A stretch of 63,869 nucleotides of DNA, the filler included, from Folioceros fuciformis (lineage: Eukaryota), in the NCBI GenBank assembly GCA_049999805.1. It is 26 parts of 26 records of this genome, joined end to end, with 100 filler letters (N's around TTAATTAATTAA, not from the genome) between each part and the next. Parts side by side here need not be neighbours in the genome. Positions count along the whole stretch, not along the records: positions 56,995 to 58,460 come from JBNGIO010007101.1; 25 more parts are not named here. One strand, written 5' to 3'. The translations under genes were made by a program, and so were the position numbers. This document shows, in pieces, positions 12,055-63,339 of this stretch. The notes below the pieces were generated by a model, which was not told the origin of the DNA, did no database searches, and saw only the letters and a list, made by a program, of their open reading frames with translations. The number at the start of each line of letters is the position of its first letter. The first letter of the stretch is position 1.

Positions 12055-12165
12055 CTTAAACCTTGAAAGTTTTCCTTTCCTACTACCTTTTTAGCAGAGA
12101 ACAACTTAAACCTTGAAAGTTTTCCTTTCCTACTACCTTTTTAGTAGAGAACAACTTAAACCTTG
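12055..12165. repeat. 50-bp tandem duplication at contig start
   Basis: CTTAAACCTTGAAAGTTTTCCTTTCCTACTACCTTTTTAG(C/T)AGAGAACAA occurs twice, followed by a partial copy. Confidence 0.85.
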
Positions 12166-13079
12166 GATAATGGATCGCTGCATAAATAAGGCATTATATA
12201 TAGGATCACATGTAATGATTATATCTATATAGTGAGGGCTTTCTTTAATAACAATGTAAAACCTAACTAATATTATGAAGCTAGTCTTTTAAGGTTGCTT
12301 GATATATGGATAACAAGTTTCTTATGTTGTGGCTACTACAATTATGACATGTTTTGCATGTGCTTGCAAAATTTACAAAAAATATTGATGTCCTCACTTG
12401 TGTCTCGATGAATTTGCATGCTCTCATTAAATTATTCTTCTCTTCCAAAGAAAACAACTTATACGGGTTAAACTAAGATATATGTCTATTTCCTTGTGCT
12501 TCGTATAGTGATCAAGGCATATGACTAGCTGATTATTTATCTTAGATCTCAATATTGTTTCTTCCATCTTAAGTAATTTTGTTGTTATACAGAGTGATAG
12601 GAATATCACAAATATAAATCAAGTTATCAATAGATAGGTTAAAACTACCTACTCTAGTAAGTAAATTAGGCTTGGATTTAAATTAGAGAGCTTGTTATGA
12701 AATGTTTCCAATGTATCCTTTCTTTCATATAAAATATATTAATAGTAAGAATATATAAATTCAAGGTAGATGCGATTCAATATAGCTGACCCATTAACGA
12801 CCACAAGAAAGACATGAGACATATAAATAGGTCACCCACACATGAATATAAAGCTATCTATCCAGATTTTTTTTATTCAATTTTAGAAAATAATTAAAAA
12901 TAAATCATATGATAAATGAATACTAATATTTGAGAAAATATCTAAATTTTTATTCAAAAAATAAAAATAATATAAAAAACTAAGAAATAAGCTATTCATT
13001 TTCTTTGAGGCAAAAGTTTGATCCGAAGGTAGTATAAATTTGGGTTGTAACATGCATACCTGACAACTATGCAATTTCG

Positions 13080-13242
13080 AGTTGCGACATACATAGCCGG
13101 CAACTATGCAATTTTGGATTAGGGTATGCATAATTAGTAATTATGTAATTTTAGGTTGCAAGTTGCGACATACATAGTCGGCAATTATGCAATTTTGGAT
13201 TAGGGTATGCATAATTAGTAATTATGTAATTTTAGGTTGCAA
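13080..13242. repeat. 81-bp tandem repeat running into contig end
   Basis: GTTGCGACATACATAG...TTTTAGGTTGCAA at 13081 and 13162. Confidence 0.85.
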
Positions 13243-17877: not shown

Positions 17878-19007
17878 ATCCCGCGGTGGTCATCGGAGGG
17901 GTGCTGGCGCTGGCCGTCCCACTGGTAGTATACCAGCTGCTCAATCGGAAGCCGCCGCCCTTCGGGACTGTGACGGCTGAGGTTGCGTATGAGAAGCTGG
18001 GGGATGAGACTGTGGGAGGGCAGCTGGTGGATGTCAGGTTGCTGGAGGATGTCCAGACCGAGGGAGCGCCGGATTTGCGAGCCTACCGGAAGAAGGTGTT
18101 CAACCTGCCCTTCGTTGAGCAGTTTGAGGGAGAGGAGCAGGAGGAGGAGGCCAACGAAAACTTCGTGGCCAAGCTCAAGAGCAAGTTTAAGAAGCCGGAG
18201 GAGACGACGCTCTACTTTCTGGACAGGTTTGATGGCAGTTCTCTTGCGCTGGCGAAACTGGCTACGGAGAACGGGTTCCTGGCTGCCTACGCTGTCAAAG
18301 GGGGCGCCGAGGGGCCCAATGGCTGGCGCGAGGCTGACCTCCCGTGGTTGGTGCCTAAAAAGGGTTTCAAGCTGGACTTCAGTGCCTTCAAGAACGCCTT
18401 GGACAGCGCCTTCGGACCGGAGACAGCAGCTGTGGTGCCAGCCACGTTGGGAGTGGCCGCTGCTGCGGCTGCTGGTGTGCTCGTTTTTTCTGAGGCTGAA
18501 ACGGCGTTGCAGCTGCTTGGCTCCGCTGCGTTGATTCAGCTCTTATTGAAGAAGTTCCTATTCGCCAAAGATAGGGAGGAGACTTTCTCGCAGATCAAGG
18601 AGCTGCTGGATACTAAGGTGGCTCCTGCAATCCTGGTGGATGACATTAAAAGCATTGGCAAAGTGATAACAGCTACGGCCGAGGAAGTTTCCGGGCAAAT
18701 GGTTGGCGGCAAAGGGGCATCACCGTCCAACGGTGCTGTTGTAATGGAAGCAGAAGTTGTTTCGGAGGAGGAGCCAGATAGGAAAGAGGTGACTCGAGCG
18801 AAGGAGGACGAAAGCCCGGTACTACGTGATCAAGTGGTAGCTGAAGCTTCCCAGCCTGATCCAACGGAAGCTTCTGACCCTACCCCAACTGAAGCGTCGC
18901 CGCGGGCTCCGGCTCCCACTGAAGCTTCTGGGCCTGTTCCGACCAAACCTTCTCAGCCTGCTACTCCTACTGCCCAAGCTGCTTCTCCTGCCCTTGATGT
19001 TGTTTGA
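17878..19007 (+). CDS. TROL: Thylakoid rhodanese-like protein (STR4/TROL homologue), 5' partial
   Basis: TM helix, inactive rhodanese domain (AYEKLG..QLVDVR..GAPDL..TTLYFLDRFDGSS..AYAVKGGAEGPNGW..LPW), second TM with FSEAETALQLLGSAAL..KKFLFAKDREET, then a Pro/Glu-rich tail. Confidence 0.9.
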
Positions 19008-21859: not shown

Positions 21860-24330
21860 CTAGGATAAGCATATCCTTCCTTCCTTAACCTTGGTATCCC
21901 AGTCCAGAGTTTTGAAGCCTACTTCCTTCCTTTCGCACTTAAAGGTATAGCACACTCCATACATCCATGTCCAGCCAATCAATGCATCATATCTAGGAGC
22001 TTTCTCTTTGATAACCACATAGTCCATGAGGTACGAAATGGTACCAATATGGGTCAGCACTCCAGTTATCTCTCTTAGCGATTCCATCCTAGACATGTCC
22101 GTGAGTTGCAACACCTTAGCCGTGTGTTCTATCTCCAGCCTAGACATGTCCGTGAGTCGCAACACCTTAGTTGTGTGTTCTATCTCCAGCCCCAGCTTCC
22201 GAGCTGTGTCCTCCGTCATGATGTTAACCCCAGAACCAATATCCAAAGGTACCTTCTTGATTACACACCCCGAGATCTCTATTTGCAACTCCGCAAGACC
22301 TTGATCAACCATGGCCACCAAGTTCACAGCAAGTGGCTTTTGTCTTGGCTTGAGGAGACTCTACTTCTTCTTGGGTTGGGCTGCTTTCAATGCTCTTCGA
22401 ATTTGCTGGCGGTATTGCGGGTTGTCTCTAAGAAGCTGCGCAAATGTTATCATGAACTTCTGGTCCATGATAGCCTCCGCCAGATTGAAGGTCTCGTCTG
22501 CCCGTGCTCTCCCCTTCTCAGCGCTTGCACTAACCCACATTTCAACGACCGCGGTAGCTCCTTCAGGTATAGCGGTTGTGGAATCAGGATGACCAATAAC
22601 TAGTACAGATGGAACAGTCAGGATTTGCTCCAATTCCTCTCAAAACATCTCCATCACCTCCTTTCTGACATCTGGCGGAAACCCTAACCCATCCATATTT
22701 TTATCTCGAGGGTTTTTGCCAGATCTTGCGACTTCGTTTCTGCTCCATCTGAAACTTCATGGTTTCTACACATCGCCACTGGCATTTGCTGCGATGCCTG
22801 CACCTCACTCCTCTTCCTCTAGATACGCACGATCGCTCAGTGGACTACTTGGCTTGGTCACTTCACCGTTCTTTTGGCTATTCAGCCTCCTGTCCTTCAC
22901 TGCCCGATGAAGTCGAAGCCTTCTCATCTCGAGATGTGCCAGGAACTACCATCCTGCCCTTCTTCCCTTGCTCTCCCCTCCCGAGGGCGTCTATCTTTCG
23001 GTTGGTGTCCCACATCTCACTTCGCGTTCGAACAACCATAGCGGGTGTCTCCTCATTATACCCACTGTCCAAGTCCTCCAAGCCCTCCACACTTCTCAAC
23101 ATGTTGGCTTCAACGTCCTCCCACACCGCCATGAGCGCATCTTTAACATGCATCGCTGGTACTGGATTTTGCCCCATAGGTGGTTGGGTTCCTCTAACTA
23201 GAGGTTGAGCGATTCTCACATGCTTCTTCGGTGACTGGCAAAGAACATTGCCTGCCACATGCCCCAAAGTTTGCAGTCCACACACAGCCTTTCAAAATCA
23301 CTATTCCCTTGACGAGTTGCTAAAGGGCAACTCCTCGCGAGATGTCCAAATCCAGCTTCTCCAGTTTGGCCATCACCTCTTCCATCTTGTTCCCTTGCTG
23401 CTCCACTTTCTTGGCTGTTATCTCTACTTCCTTTCTCGCCTGCTCAGCATCCTTTCTTGCACTTACGACCTCCTACTTTGCCTTCACTAGCTCCTTCCCT
23501 CGAGTATGGCGCTTCTATTCCAATTCGACTTTTGATTTCTTCTTTTTCTCTCTCCGCGCTACACTCATCGCCCGACGAATCTTCCTCAGAGTTGTTGCTG
23601 GTTTCTTCTTACGTGGAGCTATTCGAGGAGTCCTTGGAAGAGCTTCCTTCCTCCATCGAATTGTCATTGGAGGGCGAGGAGTACTTCTTCTTTTTCTTCT
23701 TGGATTTCTTCTTGTCTCTCCGTGCCTTTCTCCCATCCTTCTTTGACTTCTTTCTCTCTTCCGCATTGGACTCTTCGTAGTTCAAGGCAGCCCTGATTGC
23801 TCGGTCCAAGTCCTTCTCAGCTTGGAGTTGTACGTGCTTCCCCAAGGCAGTGCCTATGCCCCTAGCAAACCAGCGTATTGCCATGAGCTCTGAATGAGAG
23901 CCAGCACGGTCACGTAGGCTGTAGAATCTTTCCACGTAGGCCTGCAGCGTTTCCCTTTGCTTCCTTCGTAATCTCTCAAGCTTGGACAGAATGTATCCCT
24001 CGACATCCATTCCTCGAAACCTCTCGTAGAAAGCTATCCTCAATGCCTCGAAGGTGGTTGGCGGTGTGGATGACTTGAGGTACTCCCGCTTGTACCACTT
24101 GGCCGCAGCTCCGTGCAAGACTCTGTAGAATAGCTGAACACATTGCGCATCCCTGGCCTCCTGGTTGGCAATGGGCAGCTACTCAAAACGCTCGATAAAG
24201 TCGTCAAGATCCTCGTAACCTTTCTTTTCCCCATACAGTGGGTAAGGCTGCTTAGTGGTTACAACTACTAGAGTAGTAATCATAGCTACCGTGACAGTAT
24301 TTACAACGACTGCAGTGGCAAATGCAACTA
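21860..24330 (-). mobile_element. Decayed Ty3/gypsy gag-protease region
   Basis: Retrotransposon gag (GAAAKWY..FYERF..LRRKQRETLQAYVERF), degenerate zinc knuckle, aspartic protease VPLDIGSGVNIM, frameshifts, and an in-frame 51-bp duplication at 22088-22191. Confidence 0.8.
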
Positions 24331-28458: not shown

Positions 28459-30150
28459 GGACTGTCTCTCATGCACTGCAAGTGCAAGTCCTCCGCAGTT
28501 TGCCCCGGTGGGCTGTTCCAATTTTGAGCAAGTTCAATGCCTCTTGCTTGCACTTGGCTCTGTACTGGGCTGTTTGAATTTTGAGTCTATGAGTGTACAG
28601 ATCATGTTCCTAGATTTGGGGTATACACATACATACCTACACATTCTTTGTGTACATACCTTTTGATATTATAAAGGAAAGCGACGTCTTTCGATTTTAC
28701 TTGTGGGTCTGTGAGAATAAGGGGGAAGGGTCATGGGCTCGTTTGGTGAAGACCCGAAGGTCTTTGTGACGATAGCTTGCTGCTCAAGAAATCGTGGCAA
28801 CTGTACTGGTGAAAATTGATTAAGAGGTCATTATGTCAGAGCTATAACTTGTTAGTTGGTACCAGTGAGGGGCGAAAGGAGAGAGCATGGTCGGTTTAGT
28901 ATCACACACCTGTGATGGCACCTTGCTGCTCAAGCAAGCGACCTGACAATCATGCTTGTGTGCCTTTCACTCAAGCATGAAGTGATTCCTGGCTTCCTTC
29001 AGTCTGTGAGCTTCGTCAAGGACAGGTCTGCAGCTTGCAAGTATCTGCCTGTTACGCCACGCTGACATGATTCCTCTCTGGCCAGGCTAGGCCGCACTCT
29101 ATCTGTAGGTACTTCTAGCCTGTGACACAGGGCTGCGTTCAGCGCATAATATCTGGCTGCGTCATTTGCCCTCACAAAGCGTGTGATACTGCATATAGCC
29201 CAACTCCTGGGCTGCCCACTGACACAGAATGATAAGGTAGGTGCTACTTCAGTAGGGGAGGAGACAGAATAGGGTTTTGAGTACTGCTGTCGTCGTCGGG
29301 TATGTTGTCTGATTGGCGCTGCCCCAAGAAATGAACTCCCCATACAGCAAGACGTGTCGCTGTAACTGTTTCCACTTACACGCCAATTGGTTTCGCAAAG
29401 CTGGACAAATATCTCCCCTCTCTGTCTTGTCTCTGGCTCTCTGTGTGTCAGTCCACATGTCTTATGTTCATCATAAGTAGGCTCCGTCCTTCTTCGATCC
29501 GTTCTTCCAGGTTTGTCTAAAAGTGACCTGCCGTGGTGGCCCTCCATGGAACCTGTGCTGCAGGCCAAAGCCATCCATCCACGTCACAGTACCATACACA
29601 TCGCCCAGGACACCTCACGGCTGATTGCTCGTGTCGATCCGTTAAACATCACCTCCGAGGCATCAGATCAGGCCACAATTTCGCTGACGTCACAAGTGGT
29701 AGAGACGGGAGGATAAGACTCGTTACCATTCAGACAGAGATGGAACAGCTTCTCGACAACAACACTTGACTTTTTTGCGTTTATCAACTATTAACATAAG
29801 TTGGCGTCTGTTGTGATGAGATGCCTTGGGAGGAAGGGTTACCTTAGCCAGCTGGGGTCATGGTTTGATCCACGCTGTTTAGACGAGATGAAATTGGGAT
29901 CAAACAGTCCAAATGCAGATGATCTGAATGAACTGGGATACTTTCCTTGACGAGATGGAAGTCCTGGTTTCTTCTCTCACCCCGTGTGATGGGCTGCTAC
30001 TCTGGCCGCTGGGCGGGTGGCCGCGAAGCGGCCAGAGTAGCAGCCCATCAGCAGGTTGAGGCCAACATTGTTGTGCTCTTTGCCGAAGGTCTTTACCAGC
30101 TTTGTAACCCTGGAGAGGAGCCATCAACCTTTGAGTGATCCACTTCAGAG

Positions 30151-32877
30151 ATGGACTTTGTTGCTGGGATCCAGCTACCTGAGAAGGCTGGGCCTCCAGG
30201 TGCTGCGGTTCATTCGCTGCCTATGAGTGCTGGGCGAAACAGTCTGTCTGGTGGGTCTTCGAATGGTATGAGCGGACCTCAACTTGGAGAGTACTCCTGG
30301 ACAACACTGATACTGCAGCATGCCAAGGGTGGGCAAGGCAGACGGGCTCTCAAGATGTATGAGGAAATGCGGAAGCAAGGAGTGGAACCAAGGCCACGCA
30401 CATTCGTGGCTTTGTTGAAGGCGTCCAGTAGCTTGCAGGACCTCAAGAGTGCTATGCAGATCCACGCAGAAGTTGTGAGAAATGGGTTTGAGAGAGATCT
30501 GTATGTGAGCACCATGCTGCTGGACGCTTACGCAAAATGCGGGAGCTTGGAGAATGCCCGGCGGGTGTTTGAGGAGATGTCCCATCGTGATGTGGTTTCC
30601 TGGAATGCCATGATTTTAGGGTATGCCCAGATGCAGAAGGGTGACGAGGCATTGCATTTGTATGAGCGGATGCAGCTGGAAGGCGTGGTCCGGAACGACC
30701 GAACTTTTGTTGGTGCGCTCAAGGCTTGCAGTTCCATCGCAGAAATAGATGCCAGAAATGGTGGTGATGGGATAGCAGTTAAGAAACGATGCTTGGAAAC
30801 TGTAAGAACCATCCATGCGGACCTTGAGAAAGGGGGTGTTTTGTCGAATGTGTTTGCAGGGAACATGCTGATGGATGCGTATGCTACTTGTGGGAGCCTG
30901 GAGGATGCCAGGCTGGTGTTTGAGGAGATGCCTGACCGGAGTGTGGTGTCCTGGAATGCCATTATCTTGCAGTATGCCCAGAAGGACAACGGGGAAGAGG
31001 CTTTGCGCTTGTACTCTCGGATGCAACAGGATGGTGTGGTCCCGAATGACAGGACCTACGTCGGAGCGCTGAAGGCTTGCAGTACCATTGCCGAGCGCGG
31101 GGGTGATGAATTACGTGTCAAGAAAGAGTGTGCGGAAGCTGTTAGAGCCATCCACGTCGCTGTTGAGAAGGCAAACTTTGGGGCAGATGTGTTTGTGAGG
31201 AACATGCTGTTGGATGCGTATGCAAAATGTGGCAGCCTGGAGGATGCTAGACTGGTTTTTGAGGGAATGCCTCGTCAGAGTGTGGTGTTGTGGAACACCA
31301 TGATCATGGGGTACACTCAGATGGAGAGGGGTGAAGAAGCTTTGGAGTTGTATTCACGGATGCGACAGGAAGGTATAGTACCTGATGACCGGACGTATGT
31401 TGCTGCGCTCAAGGCTTGCAGTGTCATTGCGGATCTGGCAGAGAGGAACGGTGGCGATGGAATACTTCAAAAAACGAAATGCCTCGAAACCGTGAGGTCT
31501 ATCCACACTGTGGTTGGAAAGGGGGAGTTTCCTCCGAACGTATATGTGGGGAACATGCTCGTGGAGGCTTATGTGACCTGTGGTATGCTGGAGGATGCTA
31601 GACAGGTGCTTGAGAAAATGCCTCATCGGAATGTGGTTTCTTGGAATGCCTTGATTCTGGGGTACGCCCAGATGGAGAAGGGTGAACAGGCTTTGCAACT
31701 GCTCTCATTGATGCAAAACGAAGGTGTTGCCCCTAACGATCGAACGTATGTTGCTGTACTGAAGGCCTGCAGTTCCATCGCGGAGTGGGGGGACACGAAT
31801 GGTAGTACTAGGACACTGGTGAAGGCACAGTGCCTGGAGACCGTGAGAGAGATCCACACCGAGATCAGGATGGGCAACTTCGAGCACGATGTATTTGTTG
31901 GCACCATGCTGCTGGATGCCTATGCGAAATGTGGAAGCCTAGAGGATGCTCGACAGTTATTTGAAGGAATGCCTCATCGTGATGTTGTTTCCTGGAATTC
32001 CATGATCTTGGGTTATGCCCGGATGAACAAGGGTGAAGAAGCTCTGCAAGTGTACAGAGAGATGCAGCAAGCAGGTGTGGTACCAAATGACAGGACATAC
32101 GCGTGTGCGCTGTCCGCCTGCGGAAATGTGGCAGGATTAGAGATGGGAAAAGAAATCCATGCCCAGATTGCGAAAGCTGGCCTGGAGTCGGACTCCTTCT
32201 TATGTAGTAGTTTGATAGATATGTATGCTAAATGTTCGTGCATGGTGAATGCCCGGCAGCTTTTCGAAGCCTTGCCCTCAAGGGATGTCGTGGCATGGAA
32301 TGCATTGATTGTGGGATACGCCCATCAAGGAGAGAGTGAAGTCGTCTTTGACTTGTTCAGTAGGATGCAGGTGGAGGGTATGCAGCCAGGCCCCATAACT
32401 TTCCTTGGTCTTCTCAGTGTATGCAGCCATGCAGGTCTAGTGGATAGGGGCCACAAGTTCTTCGCGGCCATGAGCAGAGAGTATGGCATCACTCCCACAA
32501 TTCAGCACTACAATTGCATGGTTGACCTACTTGGCCGCGCAGGCAAAGTCCAGGAGGCTATGGAGATGGTAAAGACGATGCCATTCGAACCGGACAGTGC
32601 AGGCTGGAAATCTGTTTTGGGAGCCTGTCGAAAGTGGGGACATGTTGTTCTTGGGAAGCAGGCTTTTGAAGGTGCTGTGAGGTTAGATAAGAATGACGCT
32701 GCAGCTTACGTTTTGATGTCAAACATCTACAAGGACGCTAACTTGCCGGAAGAGGCAAATAAGATGCAAGAGATGAGAAAGCAGCTTCAAGTCTGGAAGG
32801 AACCCGGGCAAACCTGCTGGATGGACCCAAGTGGGAATGCTCATGTATTCTGCAGAGGGAGGTCGAAAGCACCCTGA
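30151..32877 (+). CDS. PLS-class PPR protein with E domains and PG-box, no DYW (organellar RNA-editing factor type)
   Basis: Intronless 908-aa ORF with repeated P-L-S triplets (DVVSWNAMI..YAQ, PNDRTYV.ALKACS, LLDAYAKCGSLEDAR.VF), an S2/E region (HYNCMVDLLGRAG, WKSVLGACR, AYVLMSNIY) and KEPGQTCW. Confidence 0.95.
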   Translation: MDFVAGIQLPEKAGPPGAAVHSLPMSAGRNSLSGGSSNGMSGPQLGEYSWTTLILQHAKGGQGRRALKMYEEMRKQGVEPRPRTFVALLKASSSLQDLKSAMQIHAEVVRNGFERDLYVSTMLLDAYAKCGSLENARRVFEEMSHRDVVSWNAMILGYAQMQKGDEALHLYERMQLEGVVRNDRTFVGALKACSSIAEIDARNGGDGIAVKKRCLETVRTIHADLEKGGVLSNVFAGNMLMDAYATCGSLEDARLVFEEMPDRSVVSWNAIILQYAQKDNGEEALRLYSRMQQDGVVPNDRTYVGALKACSTIAERGGDELRVKKECAEAVRAIHVAVEKANFGADVFVRNMLLDAYAKCGSLEDARLVFEGMPRQSVVLWNTMIMGYTQMERGEEALELYSRMRQEGIVPDDRTYVAALKACSVIADLAERNGGDGILQKTKCLETVRSIHTVVGKGEFPPNVYVGNMLVEAYVTCGMLEDARQVLEKMPHRNVVSWNALILGYAQMEKGEQALQLLSLMQNEGVAPNDRTYVAVLKACSSIAEWGDTNGSTRTLVKAQCLETVREIHTEIRMGNFEHDVFVGTMLLDAYAKCGSLEDARQLFEGMPHRDVVSWNSMILGYARMNKGEEALQVYREMQQAGVVPNDRTYACALSACGNVAGLEMGKEIHAQIAKAGLESDSFLCSSLIDMYAKCSCMVNARQLFEALPSRDVVAWNALIVGYAHQGESEVVFDLFSRMQVEGMQPGPITFLGLLSVCSHAGLVDRGHKFFAAMSREYGITPTIQHYNCMVDLLGRAGKVQEAMEMVKTMPFEPDSAGWKSVLGACRKWGHVVLGKQAFEGAVRLDKNDAAAYVLMSNIYKDANLPEEANKMQEMRKQLQVWKEPGQTCWMDPSGNAHVFCRGRSKAP

Positions 32878-43911: not shown

Positions 43912-45744
43912 CCGTGCCCCCTCCCACTTCATCCAAAAGAACCAATGCCTCTGCACTACCAGCTTCCAGAATCTTGCAAACTCGCTGTATGTGCCCACTG
44001 AATGTTGACAAACTCCGCTGCAACGACTGACCATGCATGGCAAGGAAGCACTCGTGTTGATCAAAAACTGCATGTAAAGTATGTGACCTACATCACTTCA
44101 AGCAAGAGGAGTTAAGTGTCAGTCAGTAAGCTGTACCTGATCATCCCCAATGTCTGCGAGAACATCCTTGAACCAAGGGAGCCTAGGTTCTCCTACAGCA
44201 GGCAAAAAGAGACCTGCTTTCGCCATGAGAGCCACCACACCCAAAGTTTTCAAAGCAGCGGTCTTTCCACCCGTGTTGGGTCCTGTTATGGTAACCACTT
44301 TCACTTGAGACTTGACGAGAATGTCGATTGGCACAGGCAGATTAGCCTCCATGTTGTCTTTCAGTGTGCCAGATGCTGCAGAAGCCTCGCTTGTCCTTCT
44401 GAATCTCACATTGCGAGTCGAAACAGGTTTAGGAAGAGCTGCGGCCAAGAGCAAGGGATGGCGAACACCTAATATCTGTACCATGAAACCTTCAGTTTCC
44501 CTTCTAGATTGACCCCTTTTCATCTGACCTTCCGTTCTGCAAGGATTAGAGAACACAGGCTCAACAGCTTGTAACCACCTGGCATGTGCAGCCCGTGCAC
44601 AAGCCAGGTCCAGAACTACGATCCGCTCCAACAAATAGGAAACGTCTTCTGCGTTATCAATCAGCTTAATGGAAAGCCTTCGTCGCACAGCAGTTACCTC
44701 AGCTTCTTCAGCTGCCGCGAGCTGCATTTCAGCATTGTTGAGATGAACAGCGAAGTCCGGTTCGACAAAAAGGGTGGTCCCAGTGTTACTGACATCAAGG
44801 ACAATCCCACCAGGGAGGAGTGATTTATGTGATGCCCTCACTGCAACACACAATCTTGCCCTTCGCTTGGTAACCAAAGGCGTGTCCATCCCACCAGCAT
44901 CCACTATCTTATTAGCCGTGTCTTTCAGCCTAGACTCAAGCAATTTCATGTTATCCTGACGGCTGCGCCGTGCCGATGCTAGAGAAGGACTTGCCTGGTC
45001 TAGCACAGTGGCGAAGCTGCAGTCAATGCAGAACTCAATGTCCTGCTCTAACTCTGTACAAGGATTACAGCCTGCCAGGATGGCTTGCAATGGAGCCACA
45101 GATAGCCCAGTCTGCTCCTGCAACGTGTTGTACAGTCGATGTGCCGCAGAAAGTGATCGTCTGACACGACAAAGGTCTTGTGCCCTGCACACATTCCCAT
45201 CCAGCACATCTGCCAACACATCCTGCAAATCCTCTACCCCCGAAAAGTCCAGCTGGTTAGTAAGTGATGCTGCAGCTGCTGTTTGGTGCAACAGCTCCTC
45301 ACTCTCTTTCTGAGTCTCGCCAATGGTGAGCCTGCCACTGCTCGCAACAGCCACTCCCACAGATGTGGCTGCAAATTGTGCAACCTGAGCGCAAACAACA
45401 GGCCATTCCAGCATGCGTCGTGCATCTTCTTCTATACTGTAACTGGGTCCGCCACTCCTGATTTCTTGCAGCTCACTCTCATCATCACTGCCACTCCCTG
45501 AGTTGAAATAGTCCAACTGATCCCTCCTTGCACCACCCCCAGCCACCGCTGACAGCGTGGCAGAGATTGATGTTCCAACAGAGAGAGACTCCCTCAGCCC
45601 TGACACGGCCCCAGTCACTGTGAGCGCACACGGGCAAATGTTGTGCGCAATGGACACCTCCCTTCCCTTTCTGTGACCCCACCGAGATTCACAAACCCGT
45701 GCTACCGTGCAAGTAGGGGAAACGAGCAATCCAAGTGACTCCAT
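43912..45744 (-). CDS. MUTS2: MutS2-family protein (plastid type), 3' partial
   Basis: Transit-like leader, LEW..VC, ASPSL..AR, S.TG.TLFVEP, RHPLL, VPIDI, Walker A GPNTGGKT, ADIGDDQ|SLQRSLSTFSGHI (intron 44136-44027), Walker B LVLLDE. Confidence 0.93.
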
Positions 45745-46536
45745 CACTCAAATCTCGGTGACTTGCCCGGCCACCATACAGACATCTTCCTCAGGCACTA
45801 CCCTGCCATACTCAGTCCTGCAACACGCCCCATACTGTTGTTACAACAGACACAACTGGGCTCGTCAGCAGATTCTCCGCCTCGAGCGACAGGCTTGCTT
45901 GAATGGCAACCCCTTCGACCAGAGTGGATCATTGTCAGCTAGCTCAGCCCAATTGGGAGGATTCGACTATCCGTTCTTGTGGGCAAGGCCGAACACTTCA
46001 CCATTGCAACCAACTGAGATTTCAGACAGTTTGGTGAACATAATCGTTATGGACATACCGAAGTGTCTTGGGTAGTCTTTCCCCCGTCGCTTGCGTTTAT
46101 TTCTGTAAGATATCACGACTCAGCATCACCGAGAGCACTGCGGCCGGTGCTACAAGAAACGGGAAAGATCAAAAATTGTAGATATATGCAAAAGGTTTCT
46201 TTATGAATAGTCTAGTGAGTACCCAGATGTACTCAATATTGCAATGACTACAATGCACGCTTTTAACGCGCAAGCATATATGGCTTATCGTCGCGATTCA
46301 ATGTGGTTCATGACCAAAATGATATGGACCTCACATCAATGGTTGGGTATAATTGAGCTAATAATCTCTAGTGCCACGTAAGAGAAAGTACTATGGGGTC
46401 GGGGATCAATTCAGATATTTTAGGTTTGGGGGCACAAGAAACGTATTAGTATGGTACTAGAGCCTTAGGCCATTATTCTGGAGAATTGAATCCTCTTTGC
46501 CCACCCAAATAGGCTTAGTAACTACATCGGGACTAG

Positions 46537-47075: not shown

Positions 47076-49589
47076 ACGTTTGGGTCTTTGCTAAAACATA
47101 AGTTTTCTCTTTACTCAAAAAGAAAGTCATTTGCTTTATGCTCAGTTTATTTTTCTGTTTACTTGCAAGATGTCAATTTCATTACACAATAATAAGGGTT
47201 GATGAAACTTCTTCTAATGAAACCCATGATAATCTCTTAGTAAAAAAGCTCAAAACTTTCTTAAATTTCTAAGATTATGCTTTCTATAAATGTAAGCCCA
47301 ACTCTACTATATCAAGGCTAAGATTACCCTTTAAGAAGCCAGCTGTAAATGAACTCCTCACTACCACTCATGTATTCGCTACATATTCTCTTCTCGTTGA
47401 AAATATGATTAATATCAACATAATGATAAATAGTTTTACTACCATTGTATCCGATTAGAATATCCATTCCAAAGTTAAAAAATTCATCAATTCTATCATA
47501 TCTTCATGGCTTATATCTTTTGCCTTCTAACCTTATTTTCAAAGGACCTATCAACTCTATACAAAGTCATAAGCTAGTTTTATTATACTAAAACAAATAT
47601 AAACAGTTATAAATACGAAACACCAAGCTTTTGTGAAAGTGTTTATAACAAATAGTTTTCTTAAAGTATTTTTAGTTGATGGTTCAAGCACTTAGATAAA
47701 AAAGATTCCAACCGCTTGACATAAGAAAAATATGAACTAATAGATATAAAACCTAGCTCAATATAGATTACTATAATTATAAGCTTGTATCCCTTTTTCA
47801 AATTAGATTGTAATGAAGATTTGTAAGATTGTGTGACTCAATTATAGATTTGAGAATCCTAGCCATAGCATTTAAAAATATGAATGTGCTTACATTGAGA
47901 TGACAAAAAGAAGAGAATGCTTCAACTTTTAAAAGCTTAATTAAAGGCTCACTCATACTAGCAAATTTCTTGAACTTCAAAGTTTTAAAATCTTTTCATC
48001 AACACCTTATACTTGTCTTCGTACTCTTAACTTTTTAAAAGAGACCACATGACTACTTATTCGACCATCTTTTTTGTTTTGTCATCATCATCTGCCATTT
48101 AAATATTTAAAATATCATCCACTCATGAGAAATTTTTTATTATAACTCAAAGTTTTATAATATCTATGGACTCCACATGCTGAACAGACTCTTAGGAAAT
48201 GATGGGTTCTCTTTTTTTTGGATCTGTGAGTGAGTGTTGTAGAAGAAAGGTTAGAAGATTCGGTTAGATTAGAGTTAGATCAAAGTTAGGGTTAGGATTA
48301 GGTCGGACTTAGGTTTAGGGTTTTGTTGAGTTGAGGGTTCTGTTTAAGGTGTGCTGACCTGGTTAGGCAGTGACAAGGGTTCCGGGCCAAGGGAGTATAA
48401 GAGGTCAGGCCTATTATTGAGGGGGGAGGTTTTTTTGGTGAGAGCTCCCTTAACCTTGTGTGCAGGCTGCTGNNNNNNNNNNNNNNNNNNNNNNNNNNNN
48501 NNNNNNNNNNNNNNNNTTAATTAATTAANNNNNNNNNNNNNNNNNNNNNNNNNNNNNNNNNNNNNNNNNNNNCCTGTAGCCGCGTGAGAGGCCCTCCCGA
48601 CTCAAGCTGCGCAATTGTCGCAAGCTCATCAGCCGATGCCTACAGCAATTGCCGCCACTTCGCAAAAAGGAAAAGCACCTGCGAGAGCTCTCCATCGACC
48701 GCTCGAGCGCGGAGCTCCCGGGTCAGGCCATCTCCAGTCCACGAGCACACAGACAGAGCCGTTGCGACAGGGACCGCAATTCGACAATTTAACCACGCGC
48801 ATTGTGGAATCCTGACATCCACAGCGCTGGGCTCAATTTATGTCCCGGAACTGGCTCCTTTGTGGGGACTGTAAATGGCCCCGATCATCCCCACTCTCGT
48901 CACTGCGATAGGCCGGTGTCCACGTATCTGCAAGAACGAGCGAATCGTTCACTTTTGTAAGTATGTAAAATCTGCTGTATTTGCTCTGTTCATTTTCATA
49001 AGTATATTGAATATGCTGTGTCTGTCCTGTTTAAATTGCAATTTTCGGTTAGGATAATTTTCTTCGGAAACGCACGTTCCAACTCCTACGTTACTCTTTG
49101 TGTCACACTGGCCACCTCGTCTTTTCCTTTTTCTTTCTAAGAGTTTCCTACATAGTGAAGTAAACTTGTTGTGCTCCGCTTGTCTATGGTAGCATGCTGG
49201 TCCGCTTGTCTATGGTCGCATGCTGGGCTACGTCACTATGTGTCTTCTTGACTCTTTAGCCTATCCTTGCTAGGAACTCTCCTTAACCACCACCGCAAGC
49301 CATCTACAACCTCTTCCACTCCCAACGGGGGAATAAGGGTTTTCACATTCATAGGGTTCGTGTTGGTAGCCTTTGCTCCTCTCCTTATTGCAAATCTAGT
49401 AGCATCCTTCCTTGCATCGTGAGAATTATAAAGTAAGAAAATGCTTTTAGGTAGAGGTTTGGTGTAAAATTCGTCATGTTGGATATGGTCAGCAATCAGG
49501 ACATAAATCTAGCCAAATCGAGAAGAAGGGCTTGTAATGCCTGAGATATCCAACACCACAAAATGCCTGAGATATCCAACACCACAAAT

Positions 49590-50568: not shown

Positions 50569-51855
50569 CTGATTTGGAGGAGGGGGAAGGGGAAGATAAA
50601 TTCCCTTTTTCCCACATATCATGGACAGATGAAGAGGAGGACTACCGAAGGGATATTCCTTATACCCTGAACCGGGTCAAGTGTTTTGGAATCACCTTGG
50701 ACTGCAACATGGTAGGGGCTGAAGCAGCAAACATGGAAGGACAGGCTGCTAGAGTTGCTGAAGGGAAGGGCCAGGAAAAAGCCTCCCATGCCAAGAGGGG
50801 TGTTAAGGAAGGTGAGATGAGCGAAGGGGGCTGTGACCCAAGGTCTGAAGGGCCTGCTGGTGAGGATACAGAGGTCACTAGATTCACCTCCAAAGACCTA
50901 TTCAGGGAATGGGGAATGAGGGAGGAAGATCCCCGAGAGCCGGAAGAAGGGTTTGGAGTCAGCTCTGCACCCGTGCAGCGTGAATGGGTGCAGGCTGATG
51001 AAATTAAGGATGTGGAGGTGTTGCCGGGCAAGGTGCTAAAGTTTTCCAAACAGCTGGATGCCAAATTGGAGGAGGGAATGAAGCAACTCCTGGCTGAGTT
51101 TATCGATGTGTTTGCCTTTGAGGTGACGGACATGAAGGGAATTCCCAAAGAGTGGGGGGAGCACAAGATCGACTTGGAGCCAGGCGCTGTTCCCGTTTGA
51201 ATTCCACAGTACAAGCTGAATCCAAAATACTCCATGAAGGTAAAGGAACAGCTGGAGCAATACTTGAAGGCAGATGTGATTTTTCCAATTGTGAACTCAG
51301 ATTGGGTGGCCCCAATCGTGGTGGTGCCCAAGAAACAGCAAGGGAAGATCCGAGTGTGCCAAGACTGGAGAAGGCTGAACAAAGCTACCAAGAAGGATCA
51401 TTTCCCCTTGCCATTTCATTGACAACATTCTGGATTTGGTGGCTGGCCGCATGATTTACTCCTTTTTGGATGGCTATTCTGGTTACAATCAGCTGTCCCT
51501 CAGGGAGAGTGATTGGCCATTGACAGCCTTCACAATTGATTGGGGGACATTCGCCTACAAGAGGAGTGCTTTTGGGCTGACAGGAGCACCAGGGTCCTTT
51601 ATGCGCAGCATGTACAAGATCTTCAAGGATTTCCTCCACAAGTTCCTAGAGATGTTCATAGATGATTTTTGTGTGTCTAGAGGGGTGGAGCAGCATCTGG
51701 AGCACCTAAGGTTGTGCTTGGCCAGGTGTCGTGAGACGCAACTTTGTTTGCATCCAGAGAAATGCTATTTTGGCATGGCTGAAGGGATCTTGCTAGGTCA
51801 CAGAATTTCAGCAAGGGGCATTGAAGTGGACCCGGACAAGGTGAAGGTGATTGCT
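50569..51855 (+). mobile_element. Ty3/gypsy pol reverse-transcriptase fragment, inactivated
   Basis: DVFAF..EHKIDL.PGA.PV, SDWVAPIVVVPKK..KIRVC.DWRRLNKATKKDHFPLPF, SFLDGYSGYNQ, FGL..APGSF, FIDDF, LLGHRIS..GIEVDPDKV. Stop at about 51198 and frameshift at about 51420. Confidence 0.95.
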
Positions 51856-56409: not shown

Positions 56410-56994
56410 AGCCGAGCTCCAACACAAGCTCCTAGTCGCTGCCCGTTCGTGCCGCCGCTCAAATTGTGCAGCCGCAAGGCAGGCCGCATATCGCGTCTTC
56501 TTGTCTCCTGCTCCTAATCCTGTCCCAACGCAGAGCCGCGGCTGCCGCTCCCAGTCCCGCGGCTACGGCAGCGTGCGCCATGTCTGGATGGGGCCAGAGA
56601 GCGAGTGCGCGCAGGTGCAGCAGCCAGCCAGCCAGCCAGGCGCACGGCACGAAAGCGAAACGAGGGCAGCTGATTCAAATGGCAGCCCTGTCCTGGGCCG
56701 CTATAATAACCGGGTGACCGGTCCCCGGTCGCAAACCCTCCATCAACACAGCGCTGCCTCGCGCCTTCACGTTGTTTCCACGTCCCGCACATTTCATTAG
56801 CTCCGCGAGAGACCTATGTGCCCCCTAATCGCTGCGGCAGCCGTCAAATTTAGACGGTGACGTCCAACGCGGCGAGACGCGTCTCGCGACGCGANNNNNN
56901 NNNNNNNNNNNNNNNNNNNNNNNNNNNNNNNNNNNNNNTTAATTAATTAANNNNNNNNNNNNNNNNNNNNNNNNNNNNNNNNNNNNNNNNNNNN

Positions 56995-58460
56995 TTATAT
57001 AACTTCTTAGTCTATATTATAGTATACTACTCTCTAACTTAAATAGTAATTATTATAACTACTTATCTTTCTAGCTTATAGAATCTCTATTTACTAAAGA
57101 TAGAGTTAATTTATACTAATAGAGTTAACTCTATAGATATTAGAATTAGTTATTTTAGTATATCTTTTATATACTACTATATAGCTACTTATATATATAC
57201 TAAATATAAGTAGAATTCTATACTTAAGTACTTTCTAACTATATCTATCTCTTTTTCTCTAGAATTACTATAGTAACTCTAGTTTTATATCTTTAATAAT
57301 ACTTTATACTTCTACTACTATCTATAGACTTTAAGTAACTTATTTAGTTTATAATTATATTATAGAGGTAAATCTACTCTTTTCTACTAGCTACTTTAGA
57401 GGCTATATTTTATATAAGTTTAGCTTAGTTTACTCTACTAAAGCTCTATCTATATAAGAATAAATAGTAGCTTAGATAAATAAACTAAAAACTAGTACTA
57501 AAATAAGTTATAGAATATATAGAGTAATATAGATAATAGGCTACTATAAGTTTCTAGTTAACTACTATACTAGGTCTTACTTTAATACTTATAGTAGCTA
57601 TAATATCTATAGATATTAAATATTTAACTACTTAAGCTACGTAACTAGTAATTTTACTAGATAGTACTACTATATCTAAAGATAGTAATATTTCTCTTTC
57701 TAGTCTATATAATAGGCTAATAATTACTATAGATAGAACTTTAATAATTCTATAATAGTATATAATAGTATATCTTATAATTCTTATAATAAGTATATTA
57801 GTTATATATAAAGAAGCCTTTAAGCTTAAATTATTAATACTACCTACTCTAAAGCTAAATAGGCTAGTATCTATAAACTAAGTAAAGCTAGTAGAAGTTT
57901 AGATACTACTTAGTACTTTTTATCTAGTATAAGCTATATTCTAGATAAGAAGTATAAGCTATATTATTATTAGTATAAACTACTTAGAGATAAAATAGAG
58001 AACTATTATACTAGGTATAAGAATAGCTTCTATTATTAGTAAAAGCTACTTTACTATACTACTATTACTACGTACTAATACTTAGCTAAGCTCTATATTT
58101 ACTCTATATATTAATATAGTTCTAAATATAGCTTATTTACTCTAGTAACTTCTATATACCTATATTTAGGATAAATAAAATCTCTACTATTTATTATTCT
58201 AATTCTCTATTAAACTCTAAATAAAAAGCTTACTATATAGTTATACTAATCTTATAATTATTATAGTACTATAGCTTTAGCTAGCTACGCTTTTCTCTAT
58301 TAAAACTAGTTTTTCTAGAAATATATAATTAGCCTTAGTAATATATAGTACTACTATTATTATAGTAGTTATTATTTTAACTCTACTTCTAGTAGGTTTT
58401 TTTCTTATAATAGCTAGTTCTTTAGTATAGAGATATTAAAGTAAATATAATATATAATCT
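56995..58460. repeat. RIP-like hypermutated repeat relic, probably ascomycete fungal DNA
   Basis: Very AT-rich and TpA-rich. By eye there is no CA or TG dinucleotide in 1466 bp and only 3 CG. Nearly every C is followed by T and nearly every G is preceded by A. No ORF. Confidence 0.85.
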
Positions 58461-58980
58461 NNNNNNNNNNNNNNNNNNNNNNNNNNNNNNNNNNNNNNNN
58501 NNNNTTAATTAATTAANNNNNNNNNNNNNNNNNNNNNNNNNNNNNNNNNNNNNNNNNNNNGTCCTGACACGATACACACGTGGAGATTTGGCACACATTA
58601 TACATACGTTGTAGCGTAGTGAGTGGGTGGTGTATCTACTGCAGGTGGACCAAGAAGGAGATTTTGCTTTTTTGCGGCCTTCAACCCTAAATAAAGCCCT
58701 ATAAAGCCCTATAAAGCCCTAGCCCTAGCCCCAACCCCAACCCTAGCCCGGTTCTAGCCTTCGGCCTTTTCCTCGGTTTTCCCATACCATGTTATTGTAA
58801 ATGGGACTTGCCATGTACATATATACTGTAGGTCGGTGACAAAAACGTCGGCTTGTCCTTCGTCGTCAGGCCTCCCATACAGAGAGTTAGTACATACATA
58901 CATATATGTACATAATCTACATTGTTTTGTAGGAGGCCTGGCCCAGGCGTTCCAGGGTGAGAGAGGGCCGAGACCGGGGT

Positions 58981-60203: not shown

Positions 60204-62537
60204 CTATTCGAGGGACGGCTTCACCGCAGCCAATAACCTCGTAAGTGTTGTGGAATTGCCCAACGATCCAACGGCCCGCACCGGCTGAGGAGCAATCACC
60301 TTGTGCGCACACTCCTTATGGCCACTATCATCCCCAGCAGCCGCTGCCGCTGCCGCAGCCGCAGCGGCAGCAACAGTAGGTCCCAGACAGAAAAAGTTTC
60401 TCTCCTGCATACCCATCTCCTCAACCGCGAGAGGAACAGGAGCAGCATCCTGCGTAACAAACTTCTTCAAAAAACCCCACAGCACAGCCCTGCACTTCGC
60501 CCCAGGGCTGGTCTGGAACATGCAAGAGCTGAGGCGGGTAGGCACCCCTAAGGGGTCGATGTAGGGGCTCAAGGCACCCTGCCTACTGCTGCTCCGCTCC
60601 GCAGAGGCCCGCATGAAGGCGGAATTGTACCAGAGAACCACCTGGTTCTCATCTGTCAGCATGACCGGGTCGCAGGAGGTGCTATACACCTGCTCCAGGT
60701 ACGCCAGATCAATGTGTGCAACATCGGTAGCCCTCTCCGTACAGAGCTGGATCAAGGACTCCCCAACCCCACCACCGCTGGTGACACCACAAGCACCAGG
60801 ACCAGGACCACCTCTAGGACCCCCAGCAATGGAGGCTCGCGAAACCAGCTCCCTGAAATGGTCTTGCAATGGCTTCGCCTCCAACGCCTCACCCTCCACA
60901 TGGCCAAGCCCATGCCCCAGCCCAAGCCCATGCTGCCGCATCAAACTCTCTCGCTCCAACTGCCGGCTCCGTAGTCGCTCAAACCTATCCTCCAGGCACC
61001 TACCGCGTCCACCCCCGCTCCCATACCCGTCACGGCAGGGCCCCGCCCCCGTCGCGACTCCCGGATCCTGCCTGAAACCCTCGGCTGCGTCGCTGCTACT
61101 GAGGCTCAGACCCACAGATGTGCAAACAGAGACACATCCAGATCCACTTTTGACATGCGACGGTGTATCTGGAAGCAGGCTGAGAGTCACGAGCTGTGGA
61201 CGAGAAGAGCCCACGTCCACCGCAGGGACCGAGGCATCGCTGGCGTCGTGCAAAGGGGGGCGCACCACGCTCCTGAAGCTACCCTTCCCGAAATCCACAG
61301 TGCAGCCACGGATGTCCCGAGCAGCCCTGTTGAGATCAAGGACGGCGGGGCTGCTGCCGCTGCCACTTCCTCGGCCGGGGGAGCGGGTTGGAGAGGAGGC
61401 CGAGTCATCCGGACGCATCCCGGCCGCCACATGCGAGCTGCTATTGAGATCCAGGGCTACCATGCGGGCGGGGCCGGAGCTAGGGCCGGGGCCAGGGCCG
61501 GGGCTGCTGCCAATATCCCCACACTTGCTGCTGTGATCCAGCGAGTAGCCTGTAATGCCTTTGAGCATTTCGGTAAAGCCTCCGGAGTTAGTCCTCACCT
61601 TGTGTAGCAACTTGTTCACGGAGGGGGAGCTGGCAGCTGCAGCTCTCTCCATGAACGCGACATCTCTGTCCACGACCGTTCCTGGACCACCGCTGCAACC
61701 CCCCACTCCAGCTGCTGCGGCCGCTGCTGCTGCTGTTCCGGGAATCGAGGAGCTGAAATGAGAAACATTAGTGCAACTGCTTCCTACCCTCTCCTGATGG
61801 AAGATGCTGCCGCTGACGCTGCCGCTGTAAGGAGACACAACCATCTTGGTGTACGCGTCCTCAAATGCCAACCGCTTACCTGAGGCGGCCCCCGGCTCCG
61901 CTCCCGAGGACAAGGTCAAGGCAGAGGAGACGCTAGCCTCACCGAAGTCGTTGAGAATGCGGGTAATAGCCCCTCCTCCTCCACTCCCACCTCCCATGGC
62001 GTGCGGGTGATGGTGGTGCTGTGACTGTTGCATCTGCTGCGGAACCTGCTGCTCTGCGGGAGCCGGACAGCCTGTACTCCTTTCGGCATCCGCTGACATG
62101 GACAAACAGGACATGTCGGGGGCAGCCAAGCCGAACCTGGTCAAGAAGCCTCCCTGGTGGTGAACCGGCTTGGGAGGAGACTGGACCGGCGCGCTCCTCT
62201 TGCTGGTGCCCCTGGCCGCAGGAAACCTGTCGGCGGAGCGCTTCCTGGACCTCCTCCCCCTGGAGGACGTGGTGTCGGCAGAGGCCGTAGGAACCGGGCC
62301 TGGGCCTGGGCCGGTCCCAGCCTTGCTGCCGACCGACATGGAGCTGGAAGACTGCAGGTCGGAGGCGCAGGGCGACGAGGCGGCCGGGTCCGGCTTGGGG
62401 GCAATTGGCCGCGGGGCGATGGGGCGCGGTGCAATGGGCCTATAGCGGGACAGAATATGGTCTCTCTTGGAGGGAGTGGGCGCGCTGGTCGCATTGTACC
62501 TAGCGAGGCAGCAGCCGCCCTGCTCTAAAGGAATCAT
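60204..62537 (-). CDS. AITR/DIG-like (ABA-induced transcription repressor family) protein
   Basis: 777-aa ORF with ILSRYRPIAPRP..PKP, RSRKR, two LDLN, LVTLSLL, PVMLTDENQVVLWYNSAF, QERNF and VIAPQPVRAVGS, matching family blocks as I recall them. Confidence 0.72.
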   Translation of the reverse strand: MIPLEQGGCCLARYNATSAPTPSKRDHILSRYRPIAPRPIAPRPIAPKPDPAASSPCASDLQSSSSMSVGSKAGTGPGPGPVPTASADTTSSRGRRSRKRSADRFPAARGTSKRSAPVQSPPKPVHHQGGFLTRFGLAAPDMSCLSMSADAERSTGCPAPAEQQVPQQMQQSQHHHHPHAMGGGSGGGGAITRILNDFGEASVSSALTLSSGAEPGAASGKRLAFEDAYTKMVVSPYSGSVSGSIFHQERVGSSCTNVSHFSSSIPGTAAAAAAAAGVGGCSGGPGTVVDRDVAFMERAAAASSPSVNKLLHKVRTNSGGFTEMLKGITGYSLDHSSKCGDIGSSPGPGPGPSSGPARMVALDLNSSSHVAAGMRPDDSASSPTRSPGRGSGSGSSPAVLDLNRAARDIRGCTVDFGKGSFRSVVRPPLHDASDASVPAVDVGSSRPQLVTLSLLPDTPSHVKSGSGCVSVCTSVGLSLSSSDAAEGFRQDPGVATGAGPCRDGYGSGGGRGRCLEDRFERLRSRQLERESLMRQHGLGLGHGLGHVEGEALEAKPLQDHFRELVSRASIAGGPRGGPGPGACGVTSGGGVGESLIQLCTERATDVAHIDLAYLEQVYSTSCDPVMLTDENQVVLWYNSAFMRASAERSSSRQGALSPYIDPLGVPTRLSSCMFQTSPGAKCRAVLWGFLKKFVTQDAAPVPLAVEEMGMQERNFFCLGPTVAAAAAAAAAAAAGDDSGHKECAHKVIAPQPVRAVGSLGNSTTLTRLLAAVKPSLE

Positions 62538-63339
62538 TCGCCGAGCCTTCTCTTTCTCCCTTTGAGGATTCGTGGTGATGGCGCGTGAGGCAGCGAGGGG
62601 TTAGAGTACAGGCCGAGGAGGGCTTGAGACATAAAAGNNNNNNNNNNNNNNNNNNNNNNNNNNNNNNNNNNNNNNNNNNNNTTAATTAATTAANNNNNNN
62701 NNNNNNNNNNNNNNNNNNNNNNNNNNNNNNNNNNNNNCCCAATTGGGATTGGATTTTTGTTTTTGGGTCTGTGCATGTGCCTCGAAGAAAGATGCAAGGT
62801 ACGTTCAGAACTGGATGTTCTCATTCGAGGCACACTGTGCTGCCTTGAGGTATGACAAGGTGCTTGGAAATCATCAACATGCTCGGCTCACCATGGAATA
62901 CCAAACTCATCACCTTACATCCGTGGGGCTCTATTGGATGGGAATATGCGCACATACATGTATTCTATGCCTACCAATCATAACCAATGGAGTAGTGGAC
63001 TGGTAGGACCATGAGGCACCTGAATCTTCCCCATTTGGGTTCCCCTATTGTAGTCACACCAACTAGGTGGCCTAGGGCGGAATGGTGCACTACGGTGGAG
63101 CGGTGTGGCCTAAGGCGGAACGATGGAGCAATATGGTGCGGTGCACTATGGTCGAAGGGTGTGGCCGTATACGCAGGAGTGTTGTAGAGCATAGCCTAAG
63201 ACAGCCAGAGGAGAATGAGCGATGTGATGGTATATTAGAAGAGCAATATAAAAACAGTATGAGTGGTGTACGAGTGGTGTAGAATTGCTTATAGGAATGG
63301 TATACTGGATGAAAATGGTATACCGACATGAAGGAGCAG

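Follow-up and report, generated by a model that had tools for sequence, protein, structure and literature searches.

The window analysed here is a 63,869-base stretch of DNA from the Folioceros fuciformis assembly GCA_049999805.1, in which 26 small, unplaced contigs of 1.1-8.1 kb each have been artificially concatenated. The same linker, N44-TTAATTAATTAA-N44, stands between all 26 contigs (25 places, e.g., 1328-1427, 56895-56994, and 58461-58560), and positions 56995-58460 coincide exactly with one contig of 1466 bp, JBNGIO010007101.1. This contig carries the compositional signature that repeat-induced point mutation (RIP) leaves, and we argue that it very probably derives from a filamentous ascomycete living in or on the sequenced plant. 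Because linkers lie on both of its flanks, its place in the window says nothing about physical linkage to its neighbors, and physical continuity with plant sequence was not found. The features of the contig and its borders are as follows.

56895..56994 (unstranded): artificial linker (N44, TTAATTAATTAA, N44) that parts the RIP-degraded contig from the preceding plant contig
56995..58460 (unstranded): RIP-degraded contig, with 21% GC, CA = TG = 0, scarce CG, CC, and GG, and an excess of TA; exact pieces of it occur in two public sequencing runs, X1 and X2
57445..58045 (strand not settled; a minus frame is the best candidate): approximate coding remnant of the pre-RIP ancestor, where the period-3 signal is strongest
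57632..57877 (minus strand): longest stop-free run, 81 codons plus stop; of 1000 first-order Markov simulations, only 4 gave a run this long
57712..57772 (unstranded): stretch with several related, nonidentical copies from the same sample, showing 8 differences in 57-61 nt, with CA, TG, or CG in the flanks in place of TA
58461..58560 (unstranded): artificial linker that parts the RIP-degraded contig from the next plant contig

Composition of the contig

The contig consists of 549 A, 178 C, 132 G, and 607 T (21.1% GC). The original prediction, made by reading the sequence, had claimed that CA and TG were entirely absent, that the three CG present were all within TACG, that CC and GG were few, and that TpA was in large excess. 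Each of these statements holds when the dinucleotides are counted: there are 0 CA, 0 TG, 3 CG (all 3 within TACG), 4 CC, 9 GG, 371 TA, 205 AT, 171 CT, and 120 AG, and TA stands at 1.63 times its expected frequency. Across 5000 mononucleotide shuffles of the contig, the sum of CA and TG averaged 121.4 (standard deviation, 8.3) and reached a minimum of 86, compared with the observed value of 0.

We computed the standard RIP indices, which were 1.81 for TpA/ApT (the product index), 0.00 for (CpA+TpG)/(ApC+GpT) (the substrate index), and 1.81 for the composite, and on these values the earlier call of RIP stands. Published definitions of RIP-affected sequence set TpA/ApT at no less than 0.89 and (CpA+TpG)/(ApC+GpT) at no more than 1.03 in RIPCAL (PMC2621366) and, more strictly, a product index above 1.15, a substrate index of at most 0.75, and a composite above 0 in RIPper (PMC7882544); the contig falls within both. 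Only 4 of the 194 N-free 500-bp windows passed the RIPper thresholds, and all 4 lie inside 56995-58460, with TpA/ApT ranging from 1.78 to 1.92 across the contig’s four 500-bp windows. For the other 25 contigs, in comparison, (CpA+TpG)/(ApC+GpT) was 1.13-2.01 (1.13-1.29 for the two AT-rich plant contigs) and TpA/ApT was 0.39-1.07.

These comparisons bear on the proposal that the plant itself hypermutated one of its own repeats by a RIP-like process, for which the sole argument is that the contig was found in a plant assembly. The signature appeared in none of the other 190 windows tested, which are plant sequence. In agreement with what had been noted from the sequence, the AT-rich plant repeats keep both dinucleotides, with CA/TG counts of 70/85 (1-1327), 63/70 (12055-13242), and 68/51 (47100-48200), which corresponds to 119-155 CA+TG per 1.1-1.3 kb. 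We also looked for a transition-blind match between the contig and the rest of the window; the longest exact match in purine/pyrimidine coding was 26 nt, while 20 shuffles gave 23-30 nt. A match of this length is within chance, and the contig’s parent is therefore absent among the plant contigs of the window. Decay of cytosine methylation in plants turns CG into TG/CA rather than removing TG/CA; it shares C-to-T change in repeats with the process seen here, but it makes the very dinucleotides that the contig is without. A nonexhaustive search of the literature on RIP in connection with plant assemblies, contamination, and endophytes found neither a RIP-like process in plants nor RIP relics in plant assemblies. 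We therefore give a plant-endogenous process almost no credence.

Which cytosines were lost can be read from those that remain. The two strands show the same pattern (CA 0 and TG 0, CT 171 and AG 120, CC 4 and GG 9), and given that CA and TG are both at zero while the skew of C (178) versus G (132) is only mild, both strands must have been mutated. The pattern points to a process acting on double-strand DNA with a specificity set by the 3' neighbor, like that of methyltransferase-like RIP enzymes. We also considered one-strand cDNA editing by deaminases that recognize 5' context, which does not fit loss on both strands. Nearly all of the surviving C (171 of 178, 96%) is in CpT, and most of the surviving G (120 of 132, 91%) is in ApG; 23 of the 30 GC dinucleotides are held by AGCT, in which both bases are protected.

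To put these figures in context, complete C-to-T conversion on both strands was applied in silico to the 25 other contigs. With loss simulated at CpA alone, the median contig had 51% of its C in CpT, 88 CC+GG per kb, and 34% GC; when CpA, CpG, and CpC were all converted, close to 100% of the remaining C stood in CpT and GC fell to 12-23%. The corresponding values in the contig are 96%, 8.9 CC+GG per kb, and 21% GC. Removal has affected cytosine followed by A (where it was complete), by G, or by C, while cytosine before T has been spared. The original prediction of CpA-type RIP thus stood in one part, the RIP itself, on all of the indices computed, and had to be widened in the other, as the loss was not confined to CpA: CpG and CpC/GpG were lost as well, and CpT was spared.

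Ancestor and relatives of the contig

Purine/pyrimidine coding is unaffected by transitions (C-to-T and G-to-A), so the pattern of the ancestor is kept in it. In this coding, the spectrum of the contig is topped by a period-3 peak at 15.4 times the median power, comparable to the peak of 16.6 for the copia open reading frame (ORF) elsewhere in the window. A peak this high came up once in 2000 first-order Markov simulations and in none of 2000 second-order ones. Where this signal is strongest, at about 57445-58045, stops per 100 codons number 4, 2, and 6 over three 300-nt windows of one minus frame, compared with 13-26 in most other frames; one plus frame is also on the low side, at 11, 5, and 7. 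Given that the period-3 signal survives, we conclude that the ancestor was at least partly protein-coding; the signal shows coding and nothing more specific about the element.

The contig carries no recognizable transposase, reverse transcriptase, integrase, or gag domain and no terminal repeats, and a search for internal direct, inverted, and tandem repeats returned short, low-complexity matches at chance level. We also aligned it to the copia polyprotein of the window by a RIP-tolerant procedure, in which each codon is scored by its best transition-compatible ancestor and frameshifts are permitted. This gave scores of 71-76, compared with maxima of 59-73 for shuffled targets, and placed four Tyr opposite the Cys-Cys-His-Cys of the zinc knuckle in the copia gag. 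Since an unrelated ORF of 798 residues reached a higher score (86.6), we rejected the copia gag relation as compositional. A by-eye reading of a reverse-transcriptase or protease motif in the 81-codon frame was unconvincing and was likewise dropped.

Among indexed public runs, only two contain the contig (word shares, 0.91 and 0.51). Both belong to a single study and were made from the same sample, perhaps the one from which the assembly was built. The contigs of the runs are short (means of about 250-330 nt), and they cover the contig in pieces. Exact pieces, with 0 differences, were found at 57017-57454, 57428-57773, and 57820-58460 in X1 and at 57113-57343, 57737-57923, and 58068-58460 in X2. 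One X1 piece of 963 letters lies on the contig with its first 641 letters, up to the last base, and runs on for another 322; the DNA therefore continues past the end of the assembly contig. No record aligned to the contig was seen running into plant-like sequence within the 30 letters for which flanks are visible. A further run with the same species label but from another sample, X4, did not contain the contig, although at 5.2 million letters its size makes it uninformative.

The same libraries hold relatives of the contig. Of the 12 aligned X1 records, 4 were at least 99% alike, 1 was at 95-99%, 1 was at 90-95%, and 6 were below 90%; among the 9 from X2, the corresponding figures were 3 at no less than 99%, 1 at 95-99%, and 5 below 90%. 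Over stretches of 43-71 nt, the related copies found in the sample show 6-9 differences, a likeness of about 85-87%. By eye, in the consensus of the 30-letter flanks, one pair of copies has TGCA and GCAT in one member and TATA and GTAT in the other, and a second pair has CCGC...GTGC in one member and CCAC...GTAC in the other. Over these very short stretches, all 5 of the differences are C-to-T or G-to-A, 4 of them at CpA/TpG and 1 at CpG. At 57769-57772, the contig itself reads TATA where the least mutated copy has CATG.

By the alignment-type definition, RIP is recognized when family members differ mainly by C:G-to-T:A transitions in a preferred dinucleotide, in duplicated DNA of more than about 400 bp whose copies share about 80% identity or more; the contig has 1466 bp. 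Large RIP-affected regions are defined as RIP-positive over at least 4000 bp, compared with the 1466 bp in hand. Judging from the very short stretches visible, the sample appears to carry a repeat family whose members differ in their grade of RIP, and this would be alignment-type evidence for the process alongside the indices.

The third library of the sample, X3, is a three-letter, C-to-T-converted (bisulfite-type) library whose flanks are without G or without C. It differs from the contig only by C>T, at 32 places, or G>A, at 41. In four of the five records checked (8 were aligned), there are exactly as many differences as there are C (19/19, 12/12, and 20/20) or G (54/54) in the covered stretch. 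One record of 562 nt spans 2 of the contig’s 3 CpG, and both are converted. As the covered C or G, including 2 of 2 CpG, are converted in X3, the contig reads as unmethylated there. RIP relics in Neurospora are typically methylated, and in this respect the contig differs from them. In plant heterochromatin, the CpG of repeats are usually methylated, and the unmethylated reading is thus a weak hint against plant chromatin.

The presence of a converted library in the sample raises the alternative that the contig is a technical artefact, built from converted reads or from mis-assembled low-complexity reads. Converted reads, however, lose C or G, not both, and keep TG or CA, while the contig is without either dinucleotide and retains both bases, 178 C and 132 G, in fixed contexts. 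Moreover, the four-letter libraries X1 and X2, the flanks of which show all dinucleotides, match it in independent pieces without a difference, and a coding-type period-3 signal survives in it. We regard an artefact as highly improbable.

The total absence of CA and TG also constrains the age of the process. Of the substitutions possible in the contig, 33-42% would create CA or TG, and since none is present, unselected divergence since the last sweep of RIP must be below about 0.5-0.6% (95% bound). RIP has thus been recent or is ongoing, and a living RIP-competent genome fits this better than an old insert in the plant does.

Origin of the contig

We put at roughly 0.85 the probability that the contig is the RIP-saturated relic of a repeated element from a filamentous ascomycete growing in or on the sequenced plant. 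We infer this fungal origin not from homology but from the taxonomic range over which RIP is known and from the graded repeat family in the sample. RIP is established in Neurospora and other Pezizomycotina, where it acts before meiosis and recognizes duplicated DNA. The original prediction, which had named a fungal endophyte or contaminant as the most likely source, is supported to the same extent, as an argument from the taxonomic range of the process. Under this explanation, copies of the element would have been recognized as duplicated DNA before meiosis, and cytosines on both strands would have been turned to thymine through a cytosine-methyltransferase-like pathway of the RID / DIM-2 kind. 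A preference set by the 3' neighbor, with C lost before A, G, and C and kept before T, would leave CpT/ApG only, an excess of TpA, and 21% GC. The fungus would have been in or on the sampled plant tissue, so that its fragment could be co-assembled with the plant and end among the unplaced contigs, and it may have escaped contaminant screening because RIP had wiped out detectable similarity. We infer the enzyme pathway, the transposon nature of the element, and the reason for its surviving screening; a transposon is the most likely ancestral element.

The contig resembles RIP-affected DNA described from several ascomycetes. With Neurospora crassa (RID / DIM-2), it shares C-to-T change on both strands in duplicated DNA, CpA as the best target, an excess of TpA, and copies at graded stages. 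With Stagonospora (Parastagonospora) nodorum, it shares the same set of depleted dinucleotides (CpA, CpC, CpG, GpG, TpG), and the RIP families reported there likewise have TpA as the sole rising product and CpA as the dominant target; it differs in that some of those families show CpT-to-TpT change, while the contig keeps CpT (171 of 178 C) and its depletion is total (PMC2621366). In Fusarium circinatum, large RIP-affected regions show 20.8-22.8% GC, a product index of 1.6, and a substrate index of 0.2-0.3, and those of F. poae have 14.9% GC (PMC7882544, van Wyk et al. 2021). The contig is like them in its 21.1% GC, its product index of 1.81, its positive composite, and its loss of similarity to a parent; it differs in its substrate index of 0.00 and in its length, 1.47 kb compared with at least 4 kb, by definition, in Fusarium (PMC7882544). 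This likeness is one of composition. The AT-blocks of Leptosphaeria maculans, described as gene-poor, AT-rich mosaics of RIP-degraded transposons, offer a further parallel, and in an example from rDNA, CpA is dominant and CpG second; these blocks average 33.9% GC, however, compared with 21% in the contig (PMC3105345). The AT-rich regions of Anisogramma anomala have 32.9% GC (PMC10998396).

Context preference differs between species (PMC5496416): in Trichoderma reesei, CpA and CpG lead, with CpT and CpC behind (PMC5496416), and Aspergillus nidulans shows a dual preference for CpG and CpA (PMC2621366). Taken together, the contig is an extreme but ordinary example of an already known kind.

It is also possible that the RIP-like process belongs to some other organism, such as a basidiomycete or an undescribed plant-associated eukaryote. 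That no homology fixes the source, in Pfam, phmmer, or metagenome scans, leaves room for this, as does the combination of spared CpT with lost CpA, CpG, and CpC, which departs from the Neurospora order. The basidiomycete case described in PMC2621366, however, is biased to CpG, specifically TpCpG, rather than to CpA, and long AT-rich blocks were absent or few in three basidiomycetes compared (PMC5496416). The ascomycetes above, on the other hand, supply the matching depletion set (S. nodorum; PMC2621366) and the matching GC content and product index (Fusarium; PMC7882544). We therefore consider a source outside the filamentous ascomycetes quite unlikely.

Several observations weigh against an ascomycete contaminant, and we set them out together. 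Searches for homology returned nothing: Pfam, with all six frames translated and X placed at stops, gave 0 families at E<=10; Rfam gave 0 matches at E<=1; phmmer, with a 282-residue frame (X at stops) that includes the 81-codon run at 57632-57877 (-), gave 0 matches among 1.84 billion protein representatives; and two metagenome scans, with 30- and 26-letter patterns taken from the flanks of the less mutated copies, gave 0 matches. Of the public runs indexed, none from a fungus contains the contig, and it showed no similarity to a fungus or a transposon family in these searches. None of the 25 other contigs looks fungal by its Pfam-scanned ORFs, so that no fungal contig accompanies it in the window. 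CpT is spared in the contig and yet is the second-best target in Neurospora, where the order is CpA>CpT>CpG>CpC (as quoted in PMC5496416), and the contig’s substrate index, at exactly 0, lies below the published averages we found (0.2-0.3; PMC7882544). Among the X3 records checked, the fifth, of 52 nt with 7 differences, 3 C, and 9 G, agrees with neither its C nor its G total. Finally, the word depth of the exact pieces, measured for the contig alone, was 6.7-11.2 in X1 and 4.0-5.2 in X2, and the contig could be as deep as plant nuclear DNA, which would be high for a casual contaminant.

The last of these points, together with the lack of a fungal gene contig among the other 25, is also what speaks for a recent horizontal transfer, by which a RIP-degraded fungal segment would now be part of the plant nuclear genome: the contig turns up in a plant assembly, and two ordinary runs contain it, their word depth of 4-11 being maybe no lower than the plant’s own. 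Against such a transfer, linkers stand on both sides of the contig. The alternatives that the original prediction had tied to plant linkage (horizontal acquisition or a RIP-like process in the plant) found no support. Related copies at several grades of RIP, some with CA, TG, and CG, indicate a whole family rather than one insert. A divergence below about 0.6% would require the transfer to have been very recent, and the 2 CpG covered in X3 were both unmethylated. Contaminants are common in plant assemblies and fungal-to-plant transfers are rare, so the prior odds are low as well. We judge a recent horizontal transfer to be quite unlikely, and we hold it very unlikely indeed that the RIP-saturated fragment is part of the plant nuclear genome through a very recent transfer and lies there at single-copy plant depth. 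A RIP-degraded repeat of an ascomycete in or on the plant remains the explanation that we favor.

Other contigs of the window and significance of the finding

A Pfam scan of 57 ORFs from the other contigs (12 + 45) returned plant-like content and nothing fungal-specific. An uninterrupted ORF of 912 residues at 30139-32874 (+) encodes a PLS-class PPR protein with an E motif, of the type typical of land-plant organellar RNA-editing factors. Remains of plant-type retrotransposons include a copia gag-integrase polyprotein at 4617-6782 (-), a Ty3-type gag at 23612-24178 (-), and a reverse-transcriptase (RVT_1) fragment at 51379-51855 (+), and there were further Pfam matches to a U-box protein, a malectin-like domain, a DIOX_N + 2OG-Fe(II) oxygenase pair, and transporter fragments. 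The C-terminal end of a 542-residue ORF at 44122-45747 (-) weakly matches MutS domain V, at 28.6 bits compared with a family cut-off of 30.2.

Two long ORFs, one of 798 residues at 60207-62600 (-) and one of 375 residues at 17880-19004 (+), have no Pfam family. In purine/pyrimidine coding, the contigs that carry them lead the window in the strength of the period-3 signal (36.3 and 28.0, respectively), and a protein atlas search with the 798-residue ORF gave nothing credible. Each is probably a real gene, or else a transposon ORF, of a family that has no name yet. In the contig next after the RIP-degraded one, close to its start (58680-58750), there is a short degenerate array of CCCTA/CCCTAAA-like, telomere-like units.

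For the curation of this assembly, the result means that the contig should be flagged as non-plant and either removed or annotated, and that others like it should be sought among the unplaced contigs. It also exposes a blind spot: RIP erases similarity, and screens for contaminants that depend on homology therefore cannot classify such DNA. A simple test that combines (CpA+TpG)/(ApC+GpT) with TpA/ApT does single the contig out here. A new biological question would arise only if linkage to plant DNA proved true. What the contig reveals, if our explanation is correct, is a RIP-competent fungus in the sampled tissue, which may be of interest for work on the endophytes and pathogens of this plant.

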